Shown here: one piece after another, positions 40,127-42,812 of the stretch
Position numbering within the stretch: position 1 is the first letter of the stretch
How the letters are laid out: each line of letters opens with the position of its first letter
Source: a virus
Lineage: Duplodnaviria > Heunggongvirae > Uroviricota > Caudoviricetes
Reading direction: 5' to 3' (one strand)
IMG/VR virus record: IMGVR_UViG_646311924_000007
Span: 33,898-97,897 of that record
DNA length: 64,000 nucleotides
Translations under genes and position numbers: made by a program
The notes under the pieces: generated by a model
What the model saw: the letters and a program-made list of their open reading frames with translations, nothing else
Databases searched by the model: none
What the model was told of the DNA's origin: nothing

Positions 40127-40800
40127 TAGCACCCACAATTTATCACCGTATCGACGGTACCAAATACAGGAATGTCTGGGTTGTTGGTGATCTGCATGGT
40201 TGCTACACCAGACTGATGTCCGAACTCCATCGTGTGGATTTTGACCCTGCGCAGGATTTACTGATATCGGTCGGCGACATTATCGATCGCGGCACCGAAA
40301 ATGTTAAATGCCTGGAGCTATTGCAGATGCCATGGTTCAGAGCGGTTATGGGCAACCATGAGCGGCTGATGATTGATGCGTTAAGTCCTGATGGCAACGT
40401 GAATAACTGGCTAATGAATGGCGGTCAATGGTTCTTCATGCTGGACGCTGATCAGGAAATATTAGCCAGGGCGCTGGTGGAGTTGGTAAGACGACTGCCC
40501 TATATCATTGAGTTGAACATCGGGCAAGAAACTATCGTTATAGCCCATGCCGACTATCCGGATAATGAATATCAATTCGGTAAGGAGGTGCCGCTTTTCA
40601 ACGTTGTCTGGGCGCGCGAGCGTATCAGTGATTCGATGGATGATATTGGTGGCGAAATTTCGGGCGCAGATCGTTTTATCTTTGGTCACACTCCGGTGAA
40701 AAGCCCGAAGACATTCTGGAATCAGCATTATATCGACACTGGTGCCGTATTTTGCGGAAACCTGACATTGATGAAAGTGAAAGGTGATGGTGCAGCATGA
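40108..40800 (+). CDS. ppp: Ser/Thr protein phosphatase, lambda-PPase family
   Basis: Metallophosphatase motifs GDLHG, GDIIDRG, GNHE, GHT in canonical order. Confidence 0.85.
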
Positions 40801-41055
40801 AGATTGCTTTAGTTCTTCGCTCTGGTGGTGACTATAACGCTTCCGATGTGCAGTGGCTGGTTAATCAACTGCCAAAAGGCTATGAAATTATTTGCCTGAC
40901 AGACCTGAAGCGTTTACATGTACCTGGCGTCAAAGTTGTCCCATTGATCAACCAGTGGCAAAAGTGCCGTGGCTGGTGGGCGAAAATCGAGTTGTTCCGA
41001 CTGAACCGCCCCGGAAATCCTGGAGACTAAACTCCCTGAGAAAGAGGTAAACAGG

Positions 41056-41382
41056 ATGACTAAAAATACTCGTTTTTCCCCCGAAGTCCGTCAGCGGGCG
41101 ATTCGTATGGTTCTGGAAAGTCAGGATGAATATGACTCACAGTGGGCGGCAATTTGTTCCATTGCCCCAAAGATTGGCTGTACGCCGGAGACTCTGCGTG
41201 TCTGGGTTCGCCAGCATGAGCGGGATACCGGGGGCGGTGATGGTGGGCTCACCAGCGCTGAACGTCAGCGTCTGAAAGAGCTGGAACGTGAAAATCGTGA
41301 ACTGCGCCGCAGTAACGATATCCTTCGCCAGGCTTCCGCTTATTTTGCGAAGGCGGAGTTCGACCGCCTCTGGAAAAAATGA
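41056..41382 (+). CDS. IS3-family transposase OrfA (HTH)
   Basis: 108 aa, [23 protein letters not shown]..., leucine-zipper-like C-terminus. Confidence 0.85.
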
Positions 41383-42269
41383 TGCCACTGCTGGATAAGC
41401 TGCGTGAGCAGTACGGGGTCGGACCGGTATGCAGCGAACTGCATATTGCCCCGTCAACGTATTACCATTGTCAGCAACAGCGACATCATCCGGATAAACG
41501 CAGTGCCCGTGCGCAGCACGACGACTGGCTGAAGAGAGAGATACAGCGCGTATACGATGAAAATCATCAGGTGTACGGTGTGCGTAAAGTCTGGCGTCAG
41601 TTGTTACGGGAAGGAATCAGGGTGGCCAGATGTACAGTGGCACGTCTCATGGCGGTTATGGGACTTGCCGGTGTTCTCCGGGGTAAAAAGGTCCGTACGA
41701 CCATCAGCCGGAAAGCCGTTGCCGCAGGCGACCGCGTAAACCGTCAGTTCGTGGCAGAACGACCTGACCAGCTGTGGGTGGCTGATTTTACTTACGTCAG
41801 CACATGGCAGGGCTTCGTCTATGTGGCGTTTATCATTGATGTGTTTGCCGGATACATCGTGGGGTGGCGGGTCTCATCGTCTATGGAAACGACATTCGTG
41901 CTGGATGCGCTGGAGCAGGCGTTGTGGGCCCGTCGTCCGTCTGGCACCATCCATCACAGCGATAAAGGCTCTCAGTATGTGTCACTGGCCTATACGGAGC
42001 GACTAAAAGAAGCCGGATTACTGGCATCAACAGGGAGTACAGGCGACTCGTATGACAACGCGATGGCTGAGAGCATCAATGGTCTTTACAAAGCGGAGGT
42101 AATACACCGTAAGAGCTGGAAAAACCGTGCAGAAGTGGAACTGGCCACACTAACGTGGGTGGACTGGTATAACAATCGACGATTGCTGGGAAGGCTGGGC
42201 CATACTCCTCCGGCAGAAGCAGAAAAAGCTTATTATGCTTCCATCGGAAACGATGATCTGGCAGCCTGA
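41379..42269 (+). CDS. IS3-family transposase OrfB (DDE integrase domain)
   Basis: 296 aa; DDE motif context (WVADFTY..., [21 protein letters not shown]). Confidence 0.85.
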
Positions 42270-42812
42270 GTTCACAGATAAAACACTCTCCAGGAAACCC
42301 GGGGCGGTTCAGACCGGATATAACCGATGATCTGTTCTATCTGGATTTGGACACGGTTATTGCCGGTGATATACGCCCAATCCTTGAGAATCCACCAACC
42401 TGCTTCACCATGCTTAGGGATTTTTACCATCCACAATATCGTGGTAGCGGTGCCCTGTGGATACCAAATAGTGTAAAAGCACATATCTGGAGTTCATTCT
42501 GGCAAGATCCGGAAGGTTGGATTGCTCGTTGTGTCACTACTGAGTGCTGGGGTGATCAGGGGTTCTTACGGAAGGTTATGGGCGATGATACACCAGCATT
42601 TCAGGATCTGTATCCAGGATGGTTTGTAAGTTACAAGGCCGATGTTGTGGAACCTGGTTCAAAATATGCGAGCGCGCGTTACTCCAGGGGGAATGGGGCA
42701 TTACCAAAGGACTGCCGAATAATCTTTTTCCACGGCAAACCGCGGCCTCGCGAAGTGTCAGAGGATTGGCTTCCCCTCATTAGCTCGTTTTTTGAGCGAG
42801 AATCAGAATAAT

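Follow-up and report, generated by a model that had tools for sequence, protein, structure and literature searches.

IS629 interruption of pmgQ, a predicted glycosyltransferase gene, in a P1-like phage-plasmid

We analyzed a 64,000-nucleotide stretch of viral DNA (positions 33,898 to 97,897 of IMG/VR record IMGVR_UViG_646311924_000007; hereafter, the window), which is part of a P1-like phage-plasmid, and found that its pmgQ gene is split by a complete insertion sequence (IS) of the IS629/IS1203 type. Considered as a whole, the locus is very probably explained as an IS629 knock-out of pmgQ, a gene known to be dispensable, whose product is a predicted glycosyltransferase distantly related to glycosyltransferase family 8 (GT8) and for which virion glycosylation is the leading candidate role. 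As an event, it is a commonplace one, the knock-out of a dispensable phage-plasmid gene by an IS: the element, the gene and its glycosyltransferase label were already known, and only the insertion allele was unrecorded in the complete-genome and plasmid collections searched. The wider value of the case lies in the hypothesis that the products of pmgO, pmgP and pmgQ glycosylate virions; apart from this hypothesis, it is a routine annotation point.

The split gene and the inserted element

A preliminary description, made from the letters of the sequence, had proposed that an IS629-like insertion splits a single gene, the two parts of which are the open reading frames (ORFs) at 40797–41030 and 42347–42811. 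Both ORFs were present at these positions, and removal of the IS together with one GAC trinucleotide joined the flanking DNA (40797–41001 to 42315–42811) into one stop-free reading frame of 702 nt, which encodes 233 amino acids, close to the "about 235" first estimated. The insertion lies after nucleotide 205 of the 702-bp gene, in codon 69. Across the junction the restored protein reads ...AKIELFR|PDITDDLFYLDLDTV..., as had been written, with the motif YLDLD at residues 77–81, and the right junction reads ...CGGGGCGGTTCA|GACCGGATATAACC. The reconstructed gene was identical at 702 of 702 nucleotides to an uninterrupted coding sequence (CDS) in the E. fergusonii P1-like plasmid NZ_CP057563.1, in which a single GAC stands at this site, and the reconstructed protein was 100% identical to the protein of IMG/VR locus L014. 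Because the reconstruction equals both an intact gene and an intact protein, a chance in-frame join is excluded. Furthermore, of 677 PLSDB records that matched pmgQ at all, 588 had it in one piece (at least 80% covered), and the gene occurs at 97–99% identity in 19 phage records, annotated as pmgQ (P1), as hdmD (P7 and SJ46) or, in RefSeq, as "glycosyltransferase". These records supplied the continuous 233-aa homologues that the proposal of a single split gene calls for, and alignment with related phage-plasmids showed one continuous gene, not two separate genes, at this locus.

The identity of the gene was equally clear from its relatives and its surroundings. The reconstructed pmgQ was 98% identical to pmgQ of phage P1 (hdmD of P7) over all 702 nt, and its product matched the PHROG 1962 profile, "glycosyltransferase", with residues 1–233 aligned to profile positions 1–230 (E = 2.5e-127). 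The gene order pmgO-pmgP-ppp-pmgQ-pmgR-pmgS is conserved with P1: ppp lies upstream, its stop codon overlapping the pmgQ start (ATGA), and the C1 operators and pmgR-pmgS lie downstream. In this arrangement pmgQ closes the pmgL-pmgQ operon, which is late and C1-repressed and also contains pmgO, encoding an MptE-like/DUF115 protein with weak sialyltransferase-like similarity. Whereas pmgQ is intact in P1, P7, RCS47, SJ46 and most P1-like plasmids, it is interrupted by an IS here. The correct annotation is therefore "pmgQ (glycosyltransferase) pseudogene, interrupted by IS629", and not two hypothetical proteins.

The inserted element, at first described as IS629-like, proved to be IS629/IS1203 itself, as judged by its identity, its ORFs, its ALIL pseudoknot and its 3-bp target-site duplication. 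Measured against annotated copies in E. coli genomes, all 1310 bp were 100% identical to copies in many chromosomes and plasmids, O157:H7 included; identical copies are labelled "IS3-like element IS1203 family transposase" by PGAP, and another annotation calls the same ORFs IS629. Both ends start with TGAACCGCCCCGG, the first 13 positions being identical and 22 of 25 matching overall, and this 13-nt terminus occurred four times in the window (0.05 expected by chance), at the ends of two IS copies. At the A6 run GGAAAAAATGA, orfA ends in an overlap with orfB, which lies in the -1 frame, and the ALIL pseudoknot spans this slippery run; the two ORFs are thus predicted to be joined by programmed -1 frameshifting, as in IS629/IS1203. 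All hallmarks of the IS3 family that were tested were found, namely length, imperfect inverted repeats (IRs), overlapping helix-turn-helix (HTH) and DDE ORFs, a 3-bp duplication and near-identity. In length, IRs, orfA/orfB, ALIL and duplication, the element is like the IS629/IS1203 of E. coli and Shigella, which is abundant in O157:H7; the element itself is no different, and only its insertion site at nucleotide 205 of pmgQ was not found in the collections searched.

Two other explanations of the split were weighed against this evidence. The two ORFs could be separate genes that flank an IS and never formed a continuous gene, for which only the prior one-in-three chance of flanking frames joining in phase can be cited; the intact CDS of NZ_CP057563.1, identical at all 702 nucleotides, refutes this reading, and with a one-piece gene in the 588 plasmid and 19 phage records and full-length homologues down to 34% identity, it retains practically no probability. 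Alternatively, the insertion could be an assembly artefact, in which an IS629 copy was misplaced by the assembler, as the window holds two 100% identical 1310-bp copies and the exact junction was found neither in 5426 complete E. coli genomes nor in PLSDB. In those genomes the left junction between pmgQ and IS629 had no true match, the sole match with at least 80% coverage being 85.7% identical and belonging to an unrelated gene, and the PLSDB records examined, in which the whole 3.6-kb query was covered, carried the IS elsewhere in the neighborhood and not in pmgQ. However, both copies in the window are flanked by a perfect 3-bp duplication, GAC/GAC for one and GAA/GAA for the other, and for both the empty site can be restored perfectly, which a misjoin would not give. 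The ORF at the left junction was also present in the Logan assembly of run ERR351258, possibly from the same isolate, where the exact chimeric 77-aa protein lies on a single contig (ERR351258_19) that stops at the IS, as in short-read assemblies. We consider an artefact very improbable, and a true insertion of IS629 into pmgQ is the reading followed below.

Table 1. Features of the interrupted pmgQ locus and its neighborhood (positions in the window)
Feature	Position	Strand	Remarks
pmgO	38940..39602	+	220 aa as in P1, intact; PHROG 4603 (E 4e-74); weak Pfam MptE-like match
pmgP	39500..40126	+	208 aa, intact; pmgO paralogue; PHROG 2111 (E 7e-132); P1 annotation
ppp	40108..40800	+	lambda-type Ser/Thr phosphatase; Pfam Metallophos (E 5e-15); PHROG 246
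Chimeric ORF	40797..41030	+	77 aa: 68 PmgQ residues plus 9 (LNRPGNPGD) from the left end of the IS
pmgQ 5' fragment	40797..41001	+	nt 1–205: codons 1–68 and base 1 of codon 69
Target-site duplication, left copy	40999..41001		GAC, 3 bp
IS629/IS1203 element, IS3 family	41002..42311	+	complete, 1310 bp
IRL, left terminal inverted repeat	41002..41026	+	22/25 positions match the reverse complement of the right end
IS orfA	41056..41382	+	108 aa; helix-turn-helix, Pfam HTH_Tnp_1 (E 2.4e-12)
ALIL pseudoknot (-1 frameshift stimulator)	41337..41453	+	Rfam RF01497, 121.5 bits (E 5e-32)
IS orfB	41379..42269	+	296 aa; DDE transposase core, Pfam rve (E 9e-28), plus HTH_21
IRR, right terminal inverted repeat	42287..42311	-	counterpart of IRL
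Target-site duplication, right copy	42312..42314		GAC, 3 bp
pmgQ 3' fragment	42315..42811	+	remainder of codon 69 to the stop codon
Downstream ORF	42347..42811	+	154 aa; TTG start is the L80 codon within the DxD motif
OpmgRa and OpmgRb (C1 operators) with promoter PpmgR	42813..42878	+	mapped from the P1 annotation
pmgR	42893..43111	+	72 aa, intact; PHROG 3177 (PMC9024508)
pmgS	43113..44375	+	420 aa, intact; PHROG 1660 (E 1e-192)

The predicted enzyme encoded by pmgQ

The split gene had also been called glycosyltransferase-like on account of a DxD motif, and this part of the preliminary description stood: D79 and D81 are invariant, the family profile matches solved GT8 enzymes and the predicted fold is GT-A. 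It was refined in two respects, in that the gene was already named pmgQ/hdmD and was already labelled a glycosyltransferase in RefSeq and PHROGs. A database search returned 135 homologues, nearly all of them full length (~190–245 aa) and continuous across the insertion point. In the family alignment, which comprised 39 homologues down to 34% identity, D36, W60, K63, D79-L80-D81, D149 (in GDQ) and P213 were invariant, and S113, M116, H208, G209 and P211 were conserved at 90% or more. A search with the profile of these 39 sequences, the check that had been proposed for assigning the glycosyltransferase family, matched solved GT8 enzymes in the Protein Data Bank (PDB), namely Skp1 alpha-galactosyltransferase GlaT1 (6mw5; E = 2.5e-8), glycogenin (E = 1.4e-5) and Streptococcus GlyE (5gvv; E = 2.9e-5). 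The HMMER alignment with GT8 enzymes paired the DxD motifs, GSG(v)m with NSGV, GDQGfL with GDQGLL and fhGkprPW with FxGxxKPW; the DxD of PmgQ aligned with those of GlaT1 and glycogenin and follows strand 75–78 in the structural model.

This model, an AlphaFold prediction for PmgQ from the alignment of 39 homologues, had a predicted local distance difference test (pLDDT) score of 94.4 and a predicted template modeling (pTM) score of 0.91. When it was compared with the PDB by Foldseek, the best matches were GlaT1, glycogenin, LgtC, GlyE, WbbM, LARGE1 and XXYLT1 (probability 1.00, TM score ~0.5–0.6), and the top 50 matches consisted of 49 GT8 or GT8-like GT-A enzymes and one metal-independent bacterial glycosyltransferase. 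With the retaining enzymes of CAZy family GT8 (glycogenin, LgtC, GlaT1, GlyE), PmgQ shares the GT-A fold and the DxD motif, and it has counterparts of the NSG (GSGxM), DQG (GDQGF) and xHxGxxKPW (FHGxPRPW) motifs. It differs from them in its low identity (10–17%, at TM ~0.5–0.6), in falling below the PF01501 threshold and in length, being shorter than the matched solved chains (233 against 262–406 aa). The conserved His of PmgQ, the role of which is presumed from the alignment, was placed two residues after the metal-binding His of glycogenin. Taken together, profile and model indicate that PmgQ is a predicted single-domain GT-A glycosyltransferase of the DxD type, distantly related to GT8 and presumably acting in the manner of a GT8 enzyme, although outside PF01501 by the Pfam criterion.

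Consequence of the insertion and candidate role of PmgQ

The course and effect of the insertion follow from these data as the most likely reading. One copy of IS629 jumped into pmgQ behind nucleotide 205, leaving the 3-bp target GAC in duplicate. Codon 69 lies past helix 59–67 of the model and ahead of strand 75–78, which leads into the DxD. The upstream piece would thus comprise residues 1–68, which make up the first beta-alpha-beta unit and include the invariant D36, followed by nine residues read from the IS. The 3' fragment holds the DxD (D79, D81), GSGxM, GDQ and FHGxPRP motifs; residues 69–233, with the DxD motif predicted to bind Mn and the UDP-sugar and with the GDQ and FHGxPRP motifs, would be left without a ribosome-binding site of their own and without a start other than the TTG of L80. 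As neither piece should be able to form the GT-A active site, pmgQ::IS629 is predicted to be a null allele.

Such an allele is probably tolerated by the phage-plasmid. For pmgQ of P1, CRISPR interference (CRISPRi) gave an efficiency of plating of 1.4, and the gene is listed as "NE" by deletion (PMC10695390). An in-frame deletion of pmgQ was among 24 P1 mutants without a plaquing defect, and only the deletions of pmgA, B, C, G and R abolished plaques (PMC9024508). Between pmgQ and pmgR the P1 annotation places two C1 operators and PpmgR, a distinct promoter, which drive pmgR-pmgS, and the 121-nt stretch from the end of pmgQ to the start of pmgR had three differences from P1, none of them in the operators or the promoter hexamers. 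Because PpmgR and the C1 operators are unchanged from P1, serious polarity on pmgR-pmgS, and hence on the essential pmgR, is unlikely. With pmgQ dispensable and pmgR keeping its own promoter and operators, the knock-out of pmgQ alone should not stop phage production.

Since 2004, pmgQ has carried the label "putative morphogenetic function" with no phenotype, and the synteny of its distant homologues offers a lead on its role in a well-studied model phage. A scan of IMG/VR with PmgQ returned only P1-like loci, which were uninformative for context, and was repeated from a remote member of the family; the resulting context set of 80 diverse IMG/VR loci was 36–58% identical to this member, its own locus excepted. 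A PmgO/PmgP-like (MptE-like) gene was present on the same strand in 48 of these 80 loci, usually within ~2.5 kb. Among the large upstream ORFs of 48 loci, where families may overlap on one ORF, there were 27 matches to five major-capsid Pfam families and 9 to portal, as well as prohead-protease matches (CLP_protease 5, SDH_protease 5, Peptidase_S49 3, Peptidase_S78 3). The first three downstream ORFs of 54 loci gave matches to head-completion (18), HK97-gp10-like (16), gp6-like connector (9) and tail-completion (8) proteins, together with several sugar-type methyltransferases and PIG-L deacetylases. Four individual cases, an Onishia prophage, a Martelella-like prophage contig and two metagenomic phage contigs, have the PmgQ homologue inside the head-tail module, where it follows a capsid or Mu-F-like gene and precedes genes for the connector or for head completion. 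The P1 order, in which pmgO-pmgP-ppp-pmgQ leads up to the head-completion gene pmgR, is in keeping with this capsid-to-connector pattern. The profile of PmgO/PmgP gave weak matches in the PDB (E = 0.01–0.04) to the Campylobacter sialyltransferase Cst-II and to the uncharacterized 5mu5, which we take to be the structure of a Maf flagellin glycosyltransferase; this resemblance is suggestive only.

A position between the capsid and the connector genes that recurs in several capsid lineages, with glycan-tailoring neighbors, likens these loci to the glycosyltransferase/O-methyltransferase cassettes of mycobacteriophages. In mycobacteriophages, glycosyltransferases that the phage itself encodes modify the capsid and the tail tube (Freeman 2023, according to passages of PMC12363180, PMC11600133 and PMC11256854); Che8, Corndog and Myrna are examples of such cassettes, and in cluster O an O-methyltransferase gene adjoins (passages of PMC12363180 and PMC11600133). 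The PmgQ-like genes of distant phages, too, have methyltransferase neighbors and stand between capsid and connector genes, but the hosts here are Proteobacteria, and the likeness noted is one of gene context. By this analogy, we tentatively propose glycosylation of a virion protein during late assembly as the most likely role of PmgQ. More broadly, PmgQ and the MptE-like PmgO/PmgP might possibly represent the P1 version of a widespread, unrecognised virion-glycosylation cassette in phages of Gram-negative bacteria. If the proposal of virion glycosylation is true, the allele of the present plasmid is a naturally occurring null mutant, and the particles made would be unglycosylated.

Several observations weigh against parts of this reading of PmgQ, virion glycosylation included. 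The synteny figures are raw neighbor counts without a formal background control; in P1 itself pmgQ does not adjoin the capsid gene, and the homologue of Pantoea floridensis (L008, 8001–8633; 49% identity) lies alone in the chromosome, with lpdA and acnB on either side and no phage genes near it at that locus. As to the GT8 relationship, which came to light only with the family profile, a Pfam scan of the reconstructed PmgQ alone gave nothing at E ≤ 0.1, and 9 of the 39 homologues matched PF01501 (Glyco_transf_8) only below its threshold (best E = 0.026), so that membership in GT8 is distant. We know of no glycan on P1 or on phages with PmgQ-like genes. Moreover, the paper on the P1 virion proteome contains no occurrence of "glycos" (PMC9024508), and deletion of pmgQ in P1 had no plaque or antirestriction phenotype.

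The main rival reading is that PmgQ is a host-directed glycosyltransferase of the moron type, for example one that modifies the lipopolysaccharide (LPS) core and blocks superinfection or re-adsorption, in which case the IS would have removed a conversion function. The LPS core is the receptor to which P1 adsorbs, and the alpha-glycosyltransferases of the enterobacterial LPS core, such as WaaJ/WaaO, belong to GT8. In addition, the PHROGs category of family 1962 is "moron, auxiliary metabolic gene and host takeover", the lipooligosaccharide galactosyltransferase LgtC is among the closest solved folds, and the Pantoea homologue stands alone in a chromosome. A role of this kind is nevertheless disfavored by late, C1-repressed expression, since a gene of the late operon under C1 operators would be off in the lysogen, and by the synteny with structural modules, since many unrelated phages have a homologue set between their capsid and head-completion genes, which is atypical of conversion genes. 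At 233 aa, PmgQ also lacks what we take to be the extra C-terminal region of WaaJ-type enzymes. We thus regard a host-directed role as unlikely. The reading of PmgQ as a phosphohydrolase instead of a glycosyltransferase is far less probable still, to the point of being hardly tenable: NCBI gives the name "phosphohydrolase" to two close homologues (P0004 and P0005), but PmgQ had no match to a phosphoesterase family in the Pfam scan, and profile and fold searches gave mainly GT-A/GT8 enzymes. The name has probably spilled over from the adjoining ppp metallophosphoesterase gene.

A second IS629 copy and other observations at the locus

The second IS629 copy of the window lies on the minus strand at 59974–61283 and is identical to the copy in pmgQ at 1310 of 1310 positions (0 differences). 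It is flanked by a GAA duplication at 59971–59973 and 61284–61286, and its removal restored the sequence AGGAGG-N4-ATG AGA ACG..., where a 372-aa KilAC/Ant antirepressor gene begins (MRTSLVTREEMIEAIEQ...). Plasmids NZ_CP027575.1, NZ_CP027443.1 and NZ_AP018798.1 have this ant site empty, identical at 383 of 383 positions and annotated as "antirepressor Ant | Icd-like". By its sequence, the second insertion thus also breaks the icd-ant unit of the immunity region, behind codon 2–3, and this disruption could affect induction. The two IS629 copies are inverted relative to each other and lie 17.6 kb apart; because each keeps its matching duplication, no inversion has occurred between them since insertion. 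Their zero divergence suggests recent transposition, and two fresh identical copies on one phage-plasmid may be taken as a sign of ongoing IS629 expansion in the host.

A different lesion of pmgQ was observed in plasmid pF1200-2 (OZ023075.1), in which the gene (3632–4333) is annotated as two ORFs of 441 and 234 nt. It matched the reconstructed gene at 701 of 702 nt, which suggests that it is an independent frameshift pseudogene; the IS629 of that plasmid is in ppp.

A hairpin with a T-run behind it (AAAACGTGATGTACACTCATCACGTTTTTT) was noted at ~42838–42868, in the interval that separates the two C1 operators preceding pmgR. It has a terminator-like look, lies just past the -10 hexamer of PpmgR and is identical in P1.

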